Shown here piece by piece: positions 1 to 63,335 of a DNA stretch of 64,000 nucleotides. Origin of the DNA: a phage. The translations under genes were made by a program, and so were the position numbers. The first letter of the stretch is position 1, and the number at the start of each line of letters is the position of its first letter. A model generated the notes under the pieces. The model saw nothing but the letters and a program-made list of their open reading frames with translations. It was not told the origin of the DNA and ran no database searches. The stretch lies in sequence record OZ413487.1, one strand, 5' to 3'.

Positions 1-422
1 TCTGGACCCGATCTAAACACTCTTTACTTAATGCATACCAACAAAATGGCGGTGCATCGTTGTGTGACTTAGTTGGAATACTCATGCACCACCAGATGGT
101 GAAGCGTGGGTGGTACGATGAAGGTGTTCGTCGTATTATTTATTACCATAAATAACATTGTGGCTTCATAGAGTAATCTATGTCGAATAACCTCTTTAAC
201 TGCGGGAAGCCTAAACCTTATGGCAAGGTAATCCGCAACGAAGCGCTCAAAAGAGCGAACGCTCAGAGGCCATTCCGAAAGGAAGTAGACCAGCAAGTGC
301 GGTCGAAATGGGAGGATTCCTGTGGTTGCTTATCATAGGAATATGAGATGGTCCGATCCTACGTGAAAACGTATGGCTATGCACGTAATGGTGCGGGGTA
401 GCTTAACGACCTACCTGAACTA

Positions 423-3958: not shown

Positions 3959-5184
3959 TGAGCGTTATTCAACAATTCGCTAACCCGATGAATCCGCGTG
4001 AAACTGTTTTACTAGCTCACGGCATGATTAAACGTGTCAGCATCAAGCCTATCAAAGGTGCTGATCCTACAACAGGTATTAAAACCACTGTGTGGCAAGG
4101 TAAGAAAATTGAATCCAGCCACACCATCTCTTTACTGATTTCTGAACTGGATTCCTCTGATAACCTACTTCAAGGTGGTGAAGAAGTTTGGATCAGTATG
4201 GGCGATAAGCTGCTTAAACCAGGTCATCAAGACTCTGTCTCTGTTAAAATTGATGACAAGTGGGAAACCGTAACGCCAGGATGGATCGTAAATATCCCTT
4301 TGAAGGCAAACGAGCATAACGGTAAGACCTACTACAAAGGCTCACTGGCTAAGATGGTTAAGCTGGGTGCAGGAGAGGCTCCAGCAGCGACTCAGCAGCA
4401 AAAACAGCAACAAGGTGCACAATCACAAGGCCAGAAGCAGAAACCTCAGCAGAATGCCAATCAGGACGTTTTACGCATCTATGGTGATGTGACTCAGATT
4501 GTTGGCAACGTGGTTACTGTTAATGACCACAAGATTGGCGAAGGTGCTATGGTTGTCACTGATGAGCAGCTTAAAGACCTGGTGGTAGGTGGTCGTGTTG
4601 CAGCCATTGTTGACAAAGACACCGGAAACATTATCAGTGGCTTCAAGGCCTATCCTCCTAAGGCAGAGAACGGCACTCAAGGCTCTGGTGGCAAGCGTAA
4701 ATCCTCTTACGACCCTATCGGTGTGGAGACGGGACATAGCATCAATGCGTTGCAGATCATCCTGGATCGCGGGTTTAAGGTGGACGACCCACTAGGCGTG
4801 GCTAAAACACTGCACGTAGTCACCATTGAGCTTAAGAAAGAGTATGCTCAAGCCACCAACCGAACTGAAGATGAAGTAGGTGCCAGTGTCGGCAATGCGG
4901 TGTTGAACGCTTGTCGCCGTATTGACAAGAAAACGAAAGTTGATGATTTTGCAGCGGCAATTACTGCAGAAGCAAAAGATGTCTTGACTAATCTGGCTGA
5001 GCCGTTGTACGATTGGATCAAGAACGGTGCTGGGTCCACTGACCATCAAGAACCTCAAGCTGCCAAACAGGAAGCAGCTCCACAGCAAAACACTGTAGAC
5101 GCTCCTCCTGTAAATGACGAGGAAGATGACCCGATGGATCAGAATCCAGCACAGTATGAGTTCGATGACTCGATCCCTTTCTGA
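3958..5184 (+). CDS. single-stranded DNA-binding protein-like (SSB-type acidic C-terminal tail)
   Basis: 408 aa; AAGGAGA SD; C-terminus ...EFDDSIPF matches the canonical SSB tip (D-D-D-I-P-F); Q-rich linker; OB fold not verified. Confidence 0.5.
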   Translation: MSVIQQFANPMNPRETVLLAHGMIKRVSIKPIKGADPTTGIKTTVWQGKKIESSHTISLLISELDSSDNLLQGGEEVWISMGDKLLKPGHQDSVSVKIDDKWETVTPGWIVNIPLKANEHNGKTYYKGSLAKMVKLGAGEAPAATQQQKQQQGAQSQGQKQKPQQNANQDVLRIYGDVTQIVGNVVTVNDHKIGEGAMVVTDEQLKDLVVGGRVAAIVDKDTGNIISGFKAYPPKAENGTQGSGGKRKSSYDPIGVETGHSINALQIILDRGFKVDDPLGVAKTLHVVTIELKKEYAQATNRTEDEVGASVGNAVLNACRRIDKKTKVDDFAAAITAEAKDVLTNLAEPLYDWIKNGAGSTDHQEPQAAKQEAAPQQNTVDAPPVNDEEDDPMDQNPAQYEFDDSIPF

Positions 5185-5192
5185 GGTCAGTT

Positions 5193-5771
5193 ATGAAATG
5201 CAAACGTTGTGGAGAGGACAAGGAGGCCTCCGACTTCTACACCAGTAACAAATCAACGTGCAAAGAGTGTTGCAAGAAGGCCAGCAGGGAGGCTGACCAA
5301 TTTGCTAAAGACTCTTCAGAAAAAGGTGTAATACGTGTGTTGTACAAGGCTCAAAAGTGCAACAGCAAGCAAAGAGGTCACCCTCCTCCGACTTACACCA
5401 AAAAAGAGTTTAAGGAGTGGCTATACCTTAACGGTTACAAAGAGTTGTATGATCAGTGGGTAGCCAGCGGATACGACAAAAGGAAAAAGCCTTCTTGTGA
5501 CAGGATAGATGATTTCAAAGGGTACTCTTTTGATAATATCCGTTTAACGACTTGGGGAGAAAATAAAGACAAGCAGACAGAGGATATTCTGTTACATAGA
5601 AGCACCAGCGGTAGACGGTGCAAAAATGTAAGGAGGTTGGACATGAATGGTAACGTTCTTAAAGAATGGGTATCTCACAACTCTTGTAGCAGAGAAACCG
5701 GAATATATATTGGTTACTACATTCATGAAAAAATTCCAGCTCCAGATGGATACTTATACGAATACTTTTAA
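5193..5771 (+). CDS. zinc-ribbon protein with degenerate HNH-like segment (possible homing-endonuclease relative)
   Basis: 192 aa; N-terminal CxxC..CxxC; central C-D-R-I-D...N...N spacing resembling an HNH motif with the His replaced. Confidence 0.35.
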   Translation: MKCKRCGEDKEASDFYTSNKSTCKECCKKASREADQFAKDSSEKGVIRVLYKAQKCNSKQRGHPPPTYTKKEFKEWLYLNGYKELYDQWVASGYDKRKKPSCDRIDDFKGYSFDNIRLTTWGENKDKQTEDILLHRSTSGRRCKNVRRLDMNGNVLKEWVSHNSCSRETGIYIGYYIHEKIPAPDGYLYEYF

Positions 5772-19160: not shown

Positions 19161-19395
19161 TTTCTCCTCTTTGTCAAGTGCTGCATGAAAAATTTACAAG
19201 CTTGTATGGTAGCATTTTTGCGGCCCTGTTTACATTCAGTAATGTATGTATAATCCTTGTTGTGTGGGCGTTTAGACGTCTAGACGGTTGGAAGTCCACA
19301 GGTCAATATCTAATCTATCGGCTGCTAACTATATCCCACACAAATAGTAAGAAATATGATTGTTATATGCGTAAACTGTAACTCATGTTATCAAT

Positions 19396-19765
19396 CCCTG
19401 TATGGATCGCCAGTGGTGCGCATAATAGGTATTATGTTAAATTGCCCGTAATGATAACAGTTCTCACAATGATAGGTATTCTCATTCATCCACACAAAAT
19501 AGGTTGCAAATGTTGTGCCACTGTGTGAACGGCCTGGCCTATTAATTTCTCTCACTGCCTCGATATTTGAGAATTGTTATCCCTGTATGGATCGCCAGTG
19601 GTGCGCATAATAGGTATTATGTTAAATTGCCCGTAATGATAACAGTTCTCACAATGATAGGTATTCTCATTCATCCACACAAAATAGGTTGCAAATGTTG
19701 TGCCACTGTGTGAACGGCCTGGCCTATTAATTTCTCTCACTGCCTCGATATTTGAGAATTGTTAT
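19396..19765. repeat. perfect tandem duplication, 2 x 185 bp
   Basis: Unit ccctgtatgg...gagaattgttat at 19396-19580 repeats identically at 19581-19765. Confidence 0.85.
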
Positions 19766-20823
19766 AAGAATGAGAAGTATTCCCATTCCGTCCGCCTGGC
19801 AGCACTCCTGTAGGTCCTGCAAGGACTCTAGCTGAAAGCTAGACCCTTCGGGCCTCCCTGTAGGTCAGGTCAAAATCGTGGTAGAATTGGGCCTGTTCAG
19901 ATATTTCTGGCTGACTCTTCAGGTCTGTGTGGGAAAAGCCAACCTCTCCGGCGGGGCAGGGGGTCATGACGGGAAAATTGCAGGTCAATTAAAAAATTTA
20001 CGTGGTGTATGAAGCGCTCTTCAGGTAAGGCATGTATTATGGGATGAAACCCTCTTCAGGCAATGATATTTGTGGGTGTGATATTTGCTGGAAAGCCAGA
20101 TATGACGGGACTCCCGGCGGGGATGGGGTAGTACAGACAGGGAAAATATGAGAATGTAGTTGGGGAAATTGATCAGACAGGTAGAGTATGGAATATGTTA
20201 CAAGTATGTTAAATATGGAGGTTGAATATCTGTAGGATTTGTGTGTAAAATCAAAGACTTAAGGGGTGTTGTGGTATTTTCTATAAATAATTCAAGTTTA
20301 ATAGGCAATATTTGTCTCTATCCGCTTTGTGTGGTAAACAGATTCAGATTAGATTGGTTTACAAGTGTATACATAATATACAAATTAAAGATACAAGAAA
20401 CCCCCCTCCCCCTTCGGCTACCATTCACCTTTTCCTCTGACTGGTACTTAAACACTTATTCAGACTCTTCAGGTTATCACCCATATATCATATGGCAGTG
20501 ACTGGTGTCCTCCGGCCCCTCTTTCGTCACCCGTCCGCTTCGCCATGCTAATGCCATAGCCAATGGTTCGGTTGTTCACTCTGTTCACTCAGGTGTATCT
20601 CCATACCCCTTCAAACCGAAGAGAACAGAAAACCCGAATTACTCGGTAAAAGAAAAGAGAAGAACTTAATTTTATCAGGATAGGCAAGAATGTCAAGGCA
20701 TGACTGCTCACTAAACAAGCAAACAGTCATGTGTGGAAGGTAAGTGATTGTGGTGGTGGGAAATTTAGTTGAAAGATGTGTTATAGGTGCTCCCAGCACT
20801 TTAGCCGGGTAGCTAATTGTGTG

Positions 20824-59276: not shown

Positions 59277-59831
59277 ATGAAATACTTTGTAACAAGCGAC
59301 ACACACTTTCTCCACCAGCGGGTCATGGAGTTCGATTCATGTCAAAAACACAGATCTCAGTATGATCACAATCTTGACAGTATGAATGCGGGAATCATCG
59401 CCGAGTGGAACTCTGTTGTGTCACCTGCAGACACTGTGTTCCACTTGGGAGATATTGCGTGCACTAATGATAAGAATATCAACAACTTACTTCCAGATAT
59501 TCTAAATATGTTGAACGGACATATTATTCTTGTTCGTGGCAACCATGACACAAGGACGACTGTCAGAATTATGAAAGAGTTCGGTCATGAGGTTGTAGAT
59601 TATTACGAGCTTCGCCACAACAAGAATTTGATCTGTATGAGCCATTACCAATTTGCAAAGTGGAACAGAAAGCCTCACGGATCAGTCCAACTGTTCGGTC
59701 ATGCTCACGGAACCACACAACAGTTGTTTGGCAGGCAGCTTGATGTCGGTTGGGATGTGTGGGGGAGACTCTTACCATTAGAAGAGGCATACCGTATTGC
59801 AATGAGTTTTGCTATTGACAGCGGGGAGTAA
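59277..59831 (+). CDS. calcineurin-like metallophosphoesterase
   Basis: ATG 59277 after GAGGAA SD; FHLGDI, RGNHD, GHAHG metal-ligand motifs. Confidence 0.7.
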   Translation: MKYFVTSDTHFLHQRVMEFDSCQKHRSQYDHNLDSMNAGIIAEWNSVVSPADTVFHLGDIACTNDKNINNLLPDILNMLNGHIILVRGNHDTRTTVRIMKEFGHEVVDYYELRHNKNLICMSHYQFAKWNRKPHGSVQLFGHAHGTTQQLFGRQLDVGWDVWGRLLPLEEAYRIAMSFAIDSGE

Positions 59832-59878
59832 TCCCTGCTATTTTAAAGAAAATTGCCACACAAGGAGAATCAGGAGAT

Positions 59879-60229
59879 ATGAAAGATGGGGATAAGCTGC
59901 TATATCTTAAAGTCCCCCTTGAAATACTGTCTATGTCAAAAGTTTTGAATGACACAACTGGAGAGGTTGTTGTTCTTGACTTGTATGACAAGATCGTATA
60001 CTGCTACCTGCACAACTGGTATAAGCTTGGAGGAAATTCACGCTTCACACCCAGCACAAGGAAAATTGCAGCAGATGTTGGGATAAAGAAAACAAAAGCA
60101 GCAGCGTGCGTTAAAACTTTAGAGTGTGCAGGGGTGGTTGAAACATCCACACAAGGGAGAGGTAAAAGATGCACATTTTCCAAAGTTTTGCCACCAGAAG
60201 AAGTTATTCGGATGTCAACAACTGGTTAG
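59879..60229 (+). CDS. hypothetical protein (possible DNA-binding)
   Basis: 116 aa; AAGGAGA..GGAGA SD; immediately upstream of palindromic site array. Confidence 0.5.
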   Translation: MKDGDKLLYLKVPLEILSMSKVLNDTTGEVVVLDLYDKIVYCYLHNWYKLGGNSRFTPSTRKIAADVGIKKTKAAACVKTLECAGVVETSTQGRGKRCTFSKVLPPEEVIRMSTTG

Positions 60230-60299
60230 ACCAGTAAAAACTTAAATATCTGTACTATAAGGATTCGTATGTTTTATGTTCGCCATGGAACGGATACTA

Positions 60300-60386
60300 T
60301 TAACTGTCCGTGATACGGACACTACTGTCCGTCACGCGGACACATCTGCCCGTAATACGGACACTAACTGTCCGTGATACGGACAC
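60300..60386. promoter_or_regulatory. array of four phased palindromic sites GTCCG-N5-CGGAC
   Basis: Sites at 60306, 60327, 60348, 60370 (gtccgtgatacggac x2, gtccgtcacgcggac, gcccgtaatacggac), spacing 21-22 bp. Confidence 0.6.
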
Positions 60387-60889
60387 ATAAAGAATATAAC
60401 TAAAATAACTAAATAATAAAAAATAAAAGATCTAGTACTTATGGTACTAAGTACATATACTTAACTTATGTAGAATATACTAGATCCTAAGTACCATGTT
60501 TTAAATTTATTACTTACTATGGGCAGTGTCGGCCCTTCATTGGCACTCGCCTACGAGGGGCGAGATGCCGTGCCTCCTTGGTGTACACAATAACAGAAGT
60601 GCATACATGCAGGTCTGTTAACATGTGTGGGAGCGAAGCGATAGCGCAGGCCAAAGGCCGAGCACTGCTGTGGACCACCGACGAAAGCTTGCCAGCGCCG
60701 TAAGGAGTCGGTTGAGAGTCTCCCGCGCGAGCTTGGATGAAGTTTATGTGTGGAAACTGACAAGAAGGTCCCTAAATCGCTCCACAGCCATGTAAACTAT
60801 ACCAAGTAAGGCAATCGCACCAGTTTGATAGAAAAGCTCGTTACAAAGCGATACAGTGAGTTTTTCTATAACTTGAAGAGGAGGCAGCT

Positions 60890-61468
60890 ATGAGTCCACG
60901 CAAAGATGACCGTGAAAAGATTGCAAAACGTTATCAGAATGAAGAACAGATGGAGAAAACTTTCAAGTGGAAGCCAGGTTTCCAGCGTAATCATTCTAAC
61001 GCTCGTGATCGTAAGCATCCGGATAAGTGGTTAACACCGCCAAATGATGGCATGCAGGTTGGGGATGAGAAGGAGCTGTCACCTGGAAAAGATGGCAACT
61101 ACATTCGCACTAAGGAAGCAGGTCCAAAGGATGACAGCTATCTTGTAGATAAGGTTCTTGATGGTATTGATGTAGATGTTGACACTGCACGAAACCTTTT
61201 TCTTGGTTGGTATCGTACAGGGTTTTTCGACATCAAGGCTATTCGTCGTGTTTGTGATATTAAAAAGTCTGCATATGATGATGACTCTCTACATCGCACT
61301 CTGAGACAATGCTCAGAGAGATACGGTCATCCAGTTATCACTCTTGACGATATTAACGAAGTGATGTATCATGCAGAGGTTGTTGCAGGTAGATTCGGTG
61401 ATGCATATCTCGGTATTCTTTCTGCAAAAGATGAGGTAATGTTAAATAAAATTTACTATGAACGCTGA
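60890..61468 (+). CDS. hypothetical protein
   Basis: 192 aa; GAAGAGGAGG SD; preceded by about 350 nt GC-rich leader. Confidence 0.55.
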   Translation: MSPRKDDREKIAKRYQNEEQMEKTFKWKPGFQRNHSNARDRKHPDKWLTPPNDGMQVGDEKELSPGKDGNYIRTKEAGPKDDSYLVDKVLDGIDVDVDTARNLFLGWYRTGFFDIKAIRRVCDIKKSAYDDDSLHRTLRQCSERYGHPVITLDDINEVMYHAEVVAGRFGDAYLGILSAKDEVMLNKIYYER

Positions 61469-61478
61469 GGAGCGCTTA

Positions 61479-61667
61479 ATGAACAACCCGGTAGCAAAGA
61501 ACTGTAATAAGTTCAACAAGTCTGCAATTCACACTGACAGGAAAAAGAGCTGGTCTCCTGACATTGACGAGGAGCTTGAGAGTTACTTTGAAGACCTGGT
61601 CACTAATGCAGATGAGGTTGCGATTAAAGAATACGCAGACAGGAAGGATAAGGCCGGAATCTGTTGA
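61479..61667 (+). CDS. hypothetical protein
   Basis: ATG 61479 after GAGGAGCG SD (track 61458). Confidence 0.4.
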   Translation: MNNPVAKNCNKFNKSAIHTDRKKSWSPDIDEELESYFEDLVTNADEVAIKEYADRKDKAGIC

Positions 61668-61986: not shown

Positions 61987-62275
61987 GGTTGTTTTCGTGT
62001 ATCATGATGAATATCCAATTTAAAGATGAATTTGATGGCTTTATCTCTGGATGCTTTGAAACAGGGTTCGGAGAAGACTGAGTTCCCCTTAGAGGGCTTG
62101 ATAGTGCACCACACTTAAAATGGTAGGGGCAGCCAGCACATGACGATGTGACCCCAGCCAACCTGTAACAAGGTCGAGCCGAAGCGCGGGTAATAGGCCT
62201 CTGGTAACCCACTTGTTGGGTCTTGCTGGCCCAGGACGCTGGACAAGTCGCAGGGAATACCACCCTGCGGCGAAC

Positions 62276-62304
62276 TTGACAATCAGTATTTGCTATGATA
62301 AAAT
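62276..62304 (+). promoter_or_regulatory. sigma70-like promoter
   Basis: TTGACA-N17-TAAAAT. Confidence 0.55.
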
Positions 62305-62332: not shown

Positions 62333-62671
62333 ATGGCGGATACAACTAAAAAGCGTCGCCGTAGAGGCAGACCTCTGAAAGAGGAGTCCAACGCCATTCA
62401 GCTAGAGAAGAACATCCTTGATATGAAGGAATCTTTTATAGCGATGGTTCCAGAAGCTCACAAAGTTTTAAGAGAGCTGATGTTGGACCCGAAAACCAAA
62501 CAAAATATTCGTCAAAGCATTGCAGAGTATGTTCTTGATAAGGCAGACCGAATGCAGGAAGAATATGATGAGATGTTTGGTGAAGAGGAAGAGGTGGTAG
62601 TGGAAGAGGCTGAAAAACCAGCACCTTTTATGCCATTTACTACAGAAATACAGCCTGTTAGCAATAGCTAA
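62333..62671 (+). CDS. small DNA-binding-like protein with AT-hook motif
   Basis: ATG 62333 after GGAGGAA SD (track 62213); N-terminal KKRRRRGRP (RGRP AT-hook core), acidic C-terminus. Confidence 0.55.
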   Translation: MADTTKKRRRRGRPLKEESNAIQLEKNILDMKESFIAMVPEAHKVLRELMLDPKTKQNIRQSIAEYVLDKADRMQEEYDEMFGEEEEVVVEEAEKPAPFMPFTTEIQPVSNS

Positions 62672-63236: not shown

Positions 63237-63335
63237 GCTAGGTAAGCCCTTTGGCAAGGGCGAGGATTTTTAATCCTGAAAATAGACGAGGTAGTCGTTG
63301 AATACATAGGTGGTTCGATTCCATCACCTAGCACC
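63237..63335 (+). tRNA. atypical tRNA-like element (possible tRNA-Lys TTT with long insertion, or pseudo-tRNA)
   Basis: Perfect 7-bp acceptor gctaggt/acctagc, good D-arm and T-arm (TTCGATT), but weak anticodon stem and about 30-nt insert before T-arm; no complete CCA. Confidence 0.3.

Follow-up and report, generated by a model that had tools for sequence, protein, structure and literature searches.

A conserved hairpin-bearing element beside the iterons of rV5-like phages and of small capsid-gene plasmids, a candidate replication signal

Introduction

What does a short piece of non-coding DNA, rich in guanine and cytosine (GC-rich), do between two genes of a phage? The piece in question lies between positions 60527 and 60736 of a 64,000-nucleotide (nt) stretch of phage DNA (sequence record OZ413487.1), the whole of which we call the window. 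A preliminary description of this DNA had picked out positions 60530-60890 as a GC-rich, highly structured segment ahead of a gene for a 192-amino-acid (aa) protein, and had suggested a stable small RNA, a riboswitch-like leader or the remnant of a self-splicing element. Here we describe a conserved structured element within that segment, which is found in several lineages beside the direct repeats (iterons) of a predicted origin of replication. We propose that it probably helps to start DNA copying rather than to regulate the gene downstream of it.

Results

Anatomy of the element

Every one of the 119 GenBank phage records that match the region 60200-60950, at 88-99.5% identity, is a Vequintavirus (an rV5-like myovirus of Escherichia coli), and judged by its sequence the window is that of an rV5-like coliphage of this genus. 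The GC content is 0.54-0.565 in 200-nt windows at 60500-60799, against 0.35-0.36 in the flank (60300-60599) and a mean of 0.428 over the window. The enrichment described earlier is therefore present, but the GC-rich part covers only about 60525-60740 (~215 nt). No GenBank record that we inspected annotates the element; the region is either blank or lies under small hypothetical open reading frames (ORFs).

In order to find out which parts are conserved we used as reference L004, an IMG/VR phage contig whose homologue of the 192-aa protein has 83% amino-acid identity. The segments, all on the plus strand, compare with it as follows.

60527-60576, plus strand: 5' domain, 92% identity to L004
60577-60624, plus strand: spacer 1, 65% identity
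60625-60735, plus strand: core, 89% identity
60736-60799, plus strand: spacer 2, 66% identity, with many substitutions among close phages
60800-60889, plus strand: leader upstream of the 192-aa gene, 90% identity, near-invariant within the genus
60890-61465, plus strand: coding DNA of the 192-aa gene, 84% identity

This comparison divides the element into a 5' hairpin domain (60527-60576) and a core (60625-60736), both conserved, with variable spacers. We take these two blocks as the element proper because the identity to L004 is mosaic and because spacer 1 can lose its hairpin 2 (60592-60619), half of which is taken out in rV5 and Murica by an 18-nt deletion (60587-60604).

The 5' domain has a closing helix (60531-60535 with 60570-60574) around hairpin 1 (60542-60551 with 60559-60569), which has a 7-nt loop and a bulged A at 60565. 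Model R2 found this domain only in the window, L004 and the plasmid L031. In this phage only, position 60571 is T instead of G (GGGCC to GTGCC), which makes the sole unpaired cell in the closing helix among the compared sequences.

The core carries the following motifs.

60625-60633, plus strand: GTGTGGGAG
60633 (start), plus strand: mini-hairpin GCGAAGC
60638 (start), plus strand: mini-hairpin GCGATAGC
60649-60659, plus strand: GGCC-AAA-GGCC hairpin
60669-60676, plus strand: TGTGGACC
60677-60682 paired with 60707-60712, plus strand: helix B, which encloses a near-invariant 24-nt loop, GAAAGCTTGCCAGCGCCGTAAGGA
60716-60729, plus strand: GAGTCTCCCGCGCG

Both blocks, the core included, are also found, with 84-85% identity, in a few non-mobilizable plasmids of ~13 kb, which come from E. 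coli genomes and a plasmid collection. With model R1 the window, L004 and the plasmids score 94-99 bits, and a further contig, L033, scores 16.2 bits (E = 0.002 within a 1-kb stretch). The window holds no second copy of the element by blastn or by models R1 and R2.

Evidence for structure

Is the element folded? Between the phage and plasmid L031, hairpin 1 differs by two compensatory pairs (G-C to U-A, twice), the bulged A and the loop are kept and no change disrupts the helix; 99% of its cells are paired, against 36-47% in controls in which the partner was slid. Helix B has three sequences in three lineages (ACCGAC/GTCGGT, GCTGCC/GGCAGC and GACGGC/GCCGTC). Both sides have changed in four of its six pairs when phage, plasmid and L033 are compared, and L004 supplies one G.U intermediate (A-U, G.U, G-C). 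All cells of the helix are paired, against 2-52% in the slid controls. Phage and plasmids differ at a single position of the 24-nt loop inside it. Wherever phage and plasmid differ within hairpin 1 or helix B in the aligned blocks, the partner base has changed to match, and the remaining differences fall in loops or linkers. Because all of these differences within the two helices are compensated, the alignments indicate that hairpin 1 and helix B are real. That said, Watson-Crick compensation does not tell RNA from single-stranded DNA (ssDNA), nor does it tell which strand folds.

Fold energy is weak evidence for structure, as the z-scores illustrate.

60515-60890, RNA parameters: z -3.98 (plus strand), -2.94 (minus strand)
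60525-60740 (GC-rich part), RNA parameters: z -1.5 (plus strand), -1.9 (minus strand)
60620-60740 (core), DNA parameters: z +0.96 (plus strand), +0.68 (minus strand)

The 5' domain gives z -2.1 when folded as DNA. We dropped fold energy as a means of choosing the strand, as both strands have similar z-scores. Two further pairings were tried and rejected. The helix GUGUGGGAG/CUCCCGCGC, which would close a multi-branch fold, looked attractive in the folds of L029 and L018 and has no partner in L007, L030 or L033. A long-range pairing of GGACC (60672-60676) with GGTCC (60767-60771) is broken in half of the phage variants.

The description of the segment as highly structured is thus borne out by the compensatory changes and only partly by fold energy. 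The expectation that it would fold at lower energy than shuffled controls is borderline, with z -3.98 on the plus strand of 60515-60890 but a core whose z lies above 0. In general, the case for a functional structured non-coding element is supported because the two blocks are 89-92% conserved in a relative with 84% coding identity and because two helices covary. The particular identities put forward earlier fared less well. An Rfam covariance scan of the whole window at the gathering score returned only tRNAs and a group I intron at 140-375, so that no riboswitch, intron or small RNA family was matched by this region. At E<=10 the best match in 60200-61000 was rli43 at 22.9 bits (cut-off 100), mostly over the AT-rich part, and a scan of plasmids L030 and L031 gave nothing relevant.

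Origin context across lineages

The upstream neighbourhood of the element resembles that of an iteron-type replication origin. In the phage the order is a winged-helix initiator-like gene, four iterons, an AT-rich stretch and then the element.

59879-60229, plus strand: gene of a 116-aa winged-helix initiator-like protein, matching phrog_12838 ('replication initiation protein', 5e-80)
60301-60386: iterons, four direct repeats of 21-22 base pairs (bp), TAACTGTCCGTGATACGGACAC, spacing 21/21/22, identity 77-100%
60387-60520: AT-rich stretch, GC 0.35-0.36, presumed DNA-unwinding region

How general is this arrangement? The element adjoins six different iteron sets: that of this phage, that of L004, that of L033/L034 and those of three plasmid types. 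In every lineage it lies on the same side of the iterons and the AT-rich stretch and in the same orientation, with the core some 280-470 nt past the last repeat. At least three phased direct repeats of ~20 bp, followed by an AT-rich stretch, were found in the window, L004, L034 and the plasmids, and such a stretch likewise precedes the element in L033. A protein of the winged-helix or helix-turn-helix type adjoins the repeats in the phage (phrog_12838) and in the plasmids (288 aa).

The individual lineages illustrate how much else may change. In L004 the initiator is only 28% identical and the iterons are a different set of five, and the nucleotide homology restarts exactly at window 60527/60528. 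L033/L034 is a Logan contig that encodes P0006, a homologue of the 192-aa protein at 50% identity. There the gene has an upstream spacer of only 60 nt, which holds an unrelated terminator-like hairpin, and the DNA about 5 kb upstream of P0006 has four copies of AAGGGCCAAATAATGGCCC followed by an AT-rich stretch and a diverged core. This copy has GTGTGGGAG, AATGTGGGA, a GACGGC/GCCGTC stem around a related loop and a C/G-rich tail. The plasmids have three different iteron sets with the same core 280-330 nt downstream.

The transcription context is not shared in this way. The phage copy sits within an operon of the plus strand that has no terminator, and we found no terminator-like or promoter-like site between 60229 and 60890. 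In the plasmids the 1.8 kb ahead of the element comes after a plus-strand terminator (L030 3013-3033), terminator-like hairpins lie beside the element on the minus strand, and no plus-strand promoter-like site with at least 10 of 12 consensus matches occurs upstream of it. L030 has one weak plus-strand site (9/12, at 4512) before the rep promoter at 5278. Because the iteron context is conserved in every lineage while the transcription context differs, the element goes with the origin, and not with the 192-aa gene or a particular transcript.

The suggestion that the segment is a leader of the 192-aa gene is contradicted from both sides. The homologue in L033 has no element upstream, and the core-bearing plasmids have no homologue of the 192-aa gene, which is thus a neighbour that is not tied to the GC-rich element. 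A riboswitch-like leader and an intron remnant, neither of which has an Rfam match, lack support as well. The stretch at 60800-60889 is another matter. It holds a long AU-rich hairpin at about 60826-60872 (in the minimum free energy RNA fold) and, as had been noted, a strong Shine-Dalgarno sequence, AGGAGG at 60879-60884, with 5 nt between it and the ATG at 60890. The plasmids and L033 lack this stretch, which is probably the 192-aa gene's own 5' region, separate from the origin-linked element.

More distant relatives were sought in several collections. Protein searches of GenBank phages with the 192-aa and initiator genes gave Vequintavirus only, and the L033 non-coding region has no match in GenBank phages. 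Exact-pattern scans of IMG/VR returned the L004 contig alone, plus chance matches; those of the GTDB genomes returned nothing, or one chance match. In metagenomes the same kind of scan recovered three further rV5-like contigs and two further 13-kb plasmid-like contigs, besides chance matches.

The capsid-gene plasmids

The plasmids that share the element are a group of their own. We compared L029, L030, L031, L007, L013 and L018, which come from E. coli isolates of humans, a chicken and a feral pig, and from metagenomes; one 39.6-kb record is a trimer of the ~13-kb unit, and two metagenome contigs of the same kind measure 13.9 and 15.5 kb. They encode a major capsid protein, a tape measure protein, a Dit-like protein, a tail-completion-like protein and the 288-aa initiator, and have a non-coding region of 2.2-2.9 kb. 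Among the annotated genes there is no terminase, portal or phage-type replisome gene, and no RepB'-like primase gene was seen. The initiator matches phrog_270 (5e-12) and Pfam HTH_36, and has matches to phrog_270, 428, 8102 and 22534 and to HTH_36 in common with the phage protein, which belongs to the same broad family. For the Dit-like protein the best phage matches are tail tube initiator genes of Vequintavirus, at 50% identity.

The sharing of the core is reciprocal and exclusive, as the structured region of the plasmids matches exactly the 119 Vequintavirus records, over a 65-nt core only. An origin from host DNA was considered and rejected: none of 5,426 E. coli genomes has a chromosome match, and only four small plasmids match. 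From their gene content and these matches the plasmids are probably satellites or miniaturised derivatives of rV5-like phages. We found no description of such ~13-kb plasmids in the searchable literature.

The plasmids also differ among themselves by whole hairpin modules, one to four in number, each following GTGTG(T)GGG (L030 4840-4990, with equivalents in L013, L018, L029 and L031). Further upstream the plasmid DNA has the complementary CCCACA instead, and the orientation flips at a hairpin, L030 4810-4838, that resembles a minus-strand terminator.

A second non-coding segment, CCTCGATATTTGAGAATTGTTAT, is shared at 96% identity between the window (19747-19770) and all five of the 13-kb plasmids and contigs (for example L030 3698-3721, L031 519-542 and L029 8896-8919). 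GenBank record MT884009.2 ends about 30 nt from this segment, which is a candidate packaging site. In the window it lies in an 860-nt ORF-free region (19381-20241) that we take, from its coordinates, to be the box labelled 'non-coding' in the rV5 genome paper. This region holds an exact 185-nt tandem duplication (19394-19578/19579-19763) that is absent from other Vequintavirus records. After the duplication come GC-rich hairpins with a vocabulary like that of the element (a UUCG-type loop, and GTGTGGG at 19927).

Neighbouring genes and other features of the window

The genes upstream of the element encode an RNA ligase (on the minus strand), a P-loop protein like polynucleotide kinase, a metallophosphoesterase and the 116-aa winged-helix protein. 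The last has weaker matches to phrog_8102, phrog_428 and phrog_270, and matches to Pfam HTH_36 and DUF6945 slightly below the cut-offs. Its flanking features are given here.

59815-59844: sigma70-like promoter, 5' of the 116-aa initiator gene
60890-61468, plus strand: 192-aa gene, function unassigned, phrog_12226, no Pfam match

The 192-aa gene comes after the element, and there is a tRNA cluster 2 kb downstream. A small DUF7230 protein is encoded close to the element both in the window (61458-61667) and in L034 (2050-2250). There is another GC-rich (0.54-0.55) non-coding patch at 62050-62300, upstream of a 112-aa ORF at 62333, with no similarity to the element.

The group I intron at 140-375 (Rfam 64.7 bits) fits the terminase introns reported for rV5 (PMC3606486). 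At 63237-63335 ARAGORN calls a 99-nt tRNA-like gene with a four-base anticodon, for which Rfam gives only 35.5 bits; its equivalent is labelled tRNA-Lys(TTT) in some GenBank records and 'tRNA-OTHER' in one. Finally, 18 GenBank records (MG0656xx) named 'Campylobacter phage', with C. jejuni as host, are 95-99% identical to E. coli Vequintavirus over the region of the element, so that their labels or hosts look doubtful.

Discussion

A possible single-strand initiation signal

What might an element do that stays in place while initiators and iterons are exchanged? We tentatively suggest that it is the half of an iteron-type replication origin that is conserved whatever the initiator, namely an ssDNA priming or replisome-loading signal that resembles the complementary-strand origin of phage G4. 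The initiator would open the AT-rich stretch and the helicase would move rightwards, leaving the plus strand of the element single-stranded. The hairpins and the invariant loop would then form a landing or priming signal for a primase or primase-helicase, either host DnaG or a phage enzyme like T7 gp4. The first chain would be extended leftward, back across the origin, as at single-strand initiation (ssi) signals such as the G4 complementary-strand origin. The plasmids would keep the signal so that the replisome of a helper phage copies them. In rV5 the protein gp230 combines a helicase domain of the T7 gp4 type (GP4d_helicase) with DnaB domains, and primase/helicases of podoviruses are among its homologues (PMC3606486); the helicase domain could explain why putative satellites retain the signal.

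We made the comparison because iterons, an AT-rich stretch and initiator-independent hairpins are the layout of ssi-using origins, and chose G4 as the source of the best-known signal of this kind. Each lineage has four or five 8-mers in common with the template-equivalent strand of the G4 origin, a count reached by 6-8 of 500 dinucleotide shuffles; the opposite strand, with zero to two, shows no excess. The common words (8-10 nt) include CAATGTGG, GTGCCTACGG, GAGTCTCC, GACGGCGAAA and CAAAGGCCG, several of which fall in blocks conserved among the G4, alpha3 and St-1 origins. The best local alignment to G4 is significant for one plasmid only (3/500 shuffles). Mini-hairpin motifs of the type GCGNAGC/GCGNNAGC start at 60633, 60638 and 60725 on the plus strand, and there are none on the minus strand of the region. 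The core thus holds three of the 16 on the plus strand of the whole window; L004, L033 and plasmid L030 have one each. Such motifs are reported at the priming hairpins of G4, St-1 and alpha3 and near ssiA of RSF1010 (PMC13037366, a 2026 review).

A number of observations pull the other way. Folded as ssDNA, the core has no advantage over shuffled sequence (z +0.96 in the window, +0.61 in L033, +0.85 in L030), whereas the G4 origin has z -4.8. No CTG occurs within ~40 nt 3' of helix B in the phage or the plasmids, and only L033 has one, at +7; in the G4 origin CTACTG directly follows hairpin I. The words in common with G4 are short and not colinear, and one of the phage words is specific to this window's variant. 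Direct homology was not shown either, as model R1 gives no score on the G4 origin and the G4 origin matches nothing in the plasmids by blastn. None of the four origin regions is richer in DnaA boxes (TTWTNCACA, allowing one mismatch) than shuffled sequence, and the rV5 genome paper mapped no origin experimentally, reporting skew analysis only (PMC3606486). The compensatory changes come from three lineages only and represent few independent events. Furthermore, three points speak for RNA: in the phage the element is almost certainly transcribed, given that no terminator-like or promoter-like site separates it from the genes on either side; the G.U intermediate in helix B fits RNA at least as well as DNA; and the plasmid modules carry C(UUCG)G loops.

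Structured RNA

These points lead to the best surviving alternative, which is possible though we think it somewhat doubtful: that the element acts as a structured plus-strand RNA, either a processed stable RNA or a cis-acting fold in an early transcript that starts from the promoter at 59815, crosses the initiator gene and reaches into the 192-aa gene. Such an RNA could serve in processing, stability, antitermination or protein binding, and it would also be made by the plasmids and by L033. In phage, L033 and plasmids alike, the element points the same way as the genes around it. As RNA the plus strand of 60515-60890 has z -3.98, and in all seven versions of the element the plus strand is 4-18 kcal/mol stabler than the minus strand, yet the GC-rich part alone reaches only -1.5 on the plus and -1.9 on the minus strand. 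The putative helix GUGUGGGAG/CUCCCGCGC, which needs two U.G pairs and in which L004 changes one G-C to G.U, would suit an RNA, but it is the helix that lacks a partner in L007, L030 and L033. Neither the region nor the plasmids have an Rfam match. The context argues against a common transcript as well: in the plasmids a plus-strand terminator stands before the 1.8-kb approach to the element, with just one weak promoter-like site after it, and the position of the element is constant relative to iterons and variable relative to genes.

A helper-satellite version

The single-strand signal that we propose has a more specific form, which we regard as unlikely. The element may be the replisome-recruitment signal of a hitherto undescribed helper-satellite pair. 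Free ~13-kb plasmids with capsid, tape-measure and tail-tube-initiator proteins, an initiator and iterons of their own would keep the Vequintavirus signal in order to be copied by the primase-helicase, and packaged by the terminase, of a virulent rV5-like phage. It would be the 24-nt loop that the phage replisome recognises, and the second shared 24-nt site near 19750 would perhaps also be kept for the helper. If true, this would define the unknown origin of rV5 and a new route of satellite hijacking.

Duplex binding, packaging and coding

Could the element work as double-stranded DNA? In that case it would be a platform for a DNA-binding protein of the host or helper, such as a regulator or an accessory origin factor, with the paired segments as half-sites of inverted repeats. 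The near-invariant 24-nt block, which includes the palindrome AAGCTT, would suit such a platform, as would the GAG-N-CTC arms, which are conserved around a varying centre (T, C or A), the recurring GTGTGGG motif, the palindromes that flank the plasmid cores (CCACA(A)TGTGG, GTGCAC and TGCATGCA) and the poor fold energy as ssDNA. Half-sites should keep their sequence, yet the arms of helix B and hairpin 1 vary freely while they remain complementary, helix B with three sequences. The conserved parts also include an asymmetric loop and a bulged A, and the motif content is strand-asymmetric. We therefore consider a duplex platform improbable.

Less probable again, and in our view very unlikely, is a packaging (pac) recognition site, which the terminase-less plasmids would have copied in order to be packaged by a helper. 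Genomes of rV5-like phages are circularly permuted and headful packaging has been inferred for them (PMC3606486; PMC13211470), the plasmids have capsid and tail genes without an annotated terminase or portal, and the core is one of only two non-coding segments common to the window and the plasmids. However, the element lies ~60 kb from the terminase gene (marked by the intron at window 140-375) and adjoins iterons in every lineage, and a pac site that is read as duplex would not be expected to keep compensatory hairpins. A better pac candidate is the other common segment (19747-19770), which lies in the 860-nt ORF-free region in which one genome record ends.

That the region encodes a small protein, such as the 56-aa plus-strand 'ORF 78' of rV5 or the small ORFs annotated in BASEL phage records, can practically be dismissed: although the 56-aa frame is open in most close relatives, it is interrupted by stop codons in L004 and L028 and is not kept in the plasmids or L033, most substitutions alter the amino acid, and its differences from L004 fall without bias over the codon positions (8/11/10), against 21/10/60, the third-position bias of a real gene, in the 192-aa gene. 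The remark that there is no plausible ORF here also holds on the minus strand, where a 70-aa ORF is broken by stops in most relatives and no frame is conserved.

Uses and implications

The results are of some practical use. Phages like rV5 are widely used in therapy and biocontrol and have had no defined origin, for which window 60301-60736 is now a concrete candidate. Since the element stays when initiators and iterons are exchanged, it may be a general signal for priming or replisome entry, one that could be portable to vectors. It also links a genus of virulent myoviruses to small plasmids with capsid and tail genes, which are candidates for a new kind of satellite. For curators, the small ORFs that several GenBank records call across the element are probably spurious.

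Comparison with known systems

The G-site of plasmids R1/R100, a primase-dependent signal of the G4 type, lies ~400 bp downstream of oriR, and the element likewise lies a few hundred nt downstream of a repeat-type origin. In oriV of RSF1010, iterons and an AT-rich segment are followed by the ssiA and ssiB hairpins, which are read by the plasmid primase RepB'. The element shares with it the order of iterons, AT-rich stretch and iteron-independent hairpins. RSF1010, like the element, has a motif of the mini-hairpin type within a hairpin (PMC13037366). RSF1010 has two opposed signals, whereas the element has one orientation only, and the likeness described here is one of architecture.

Lambda-type origins resemble the present one in their initiators ('replication initiation O-like', HTH_36) and in direct repeats followed by an AT-rich stretch. 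They differ in that here the origin lies outside the initiator gene and is followed by a conserved structured GC-rich element; we know of no such element after the origin of lambda. A lead of another kind is given by GTGTC/GGGTC at the 5' edge of the element and GGGTC/TGGTC in the plasmid modules, which may be T7-type primase pentamers but are not universal, being absent from L033.

Among the cis elements of satellites, the cos site of P4, the pac or cos sites of phage-inducible chromosomal islands (PICI) and the use of the ICP1 replisome by the phage-inducible chromosomal island-like element (PLE) are comparable. The likeness lies in the plasmids' being small terminase-less replicons with structural genes related to those of a helper, and in their having a short non-coding element in common with one phage genus only. 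The plasmids described here differ from known satellites in being free ~13-kb molecules with capsid, tape-measure and Dit-like genes of their own, and in that their helper dependence is putative. Unlike the case of P4 and PICI, the shared element is at the origin and not at a known packaging site.

The closest comparison is with G4-type origins, which like the element are non-coding, strand-specific and hairpin-bearing. The element has GCGNAGC/GCGNNAGC motifs as in hairpin I of G4, and words of the template strand, namely CCCA(C)AATGTGG..GACCG, GTGCCTACGG, GAGTCTCC and GACGGCGAAA. The G4-type origins differ by a stable three-hairpin ssDNA fold (z -4.8, against about +1 for the core) and by a CTG start site, and the invariant 24-nt loop of the element has no G4 counterpart. 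We do not file the element as a member of the G4 type, as it lacks the stable DNA hairpins and a conserved CTG triplet; by analogy, it would work most like a component of an ssi or G-site-type origin.

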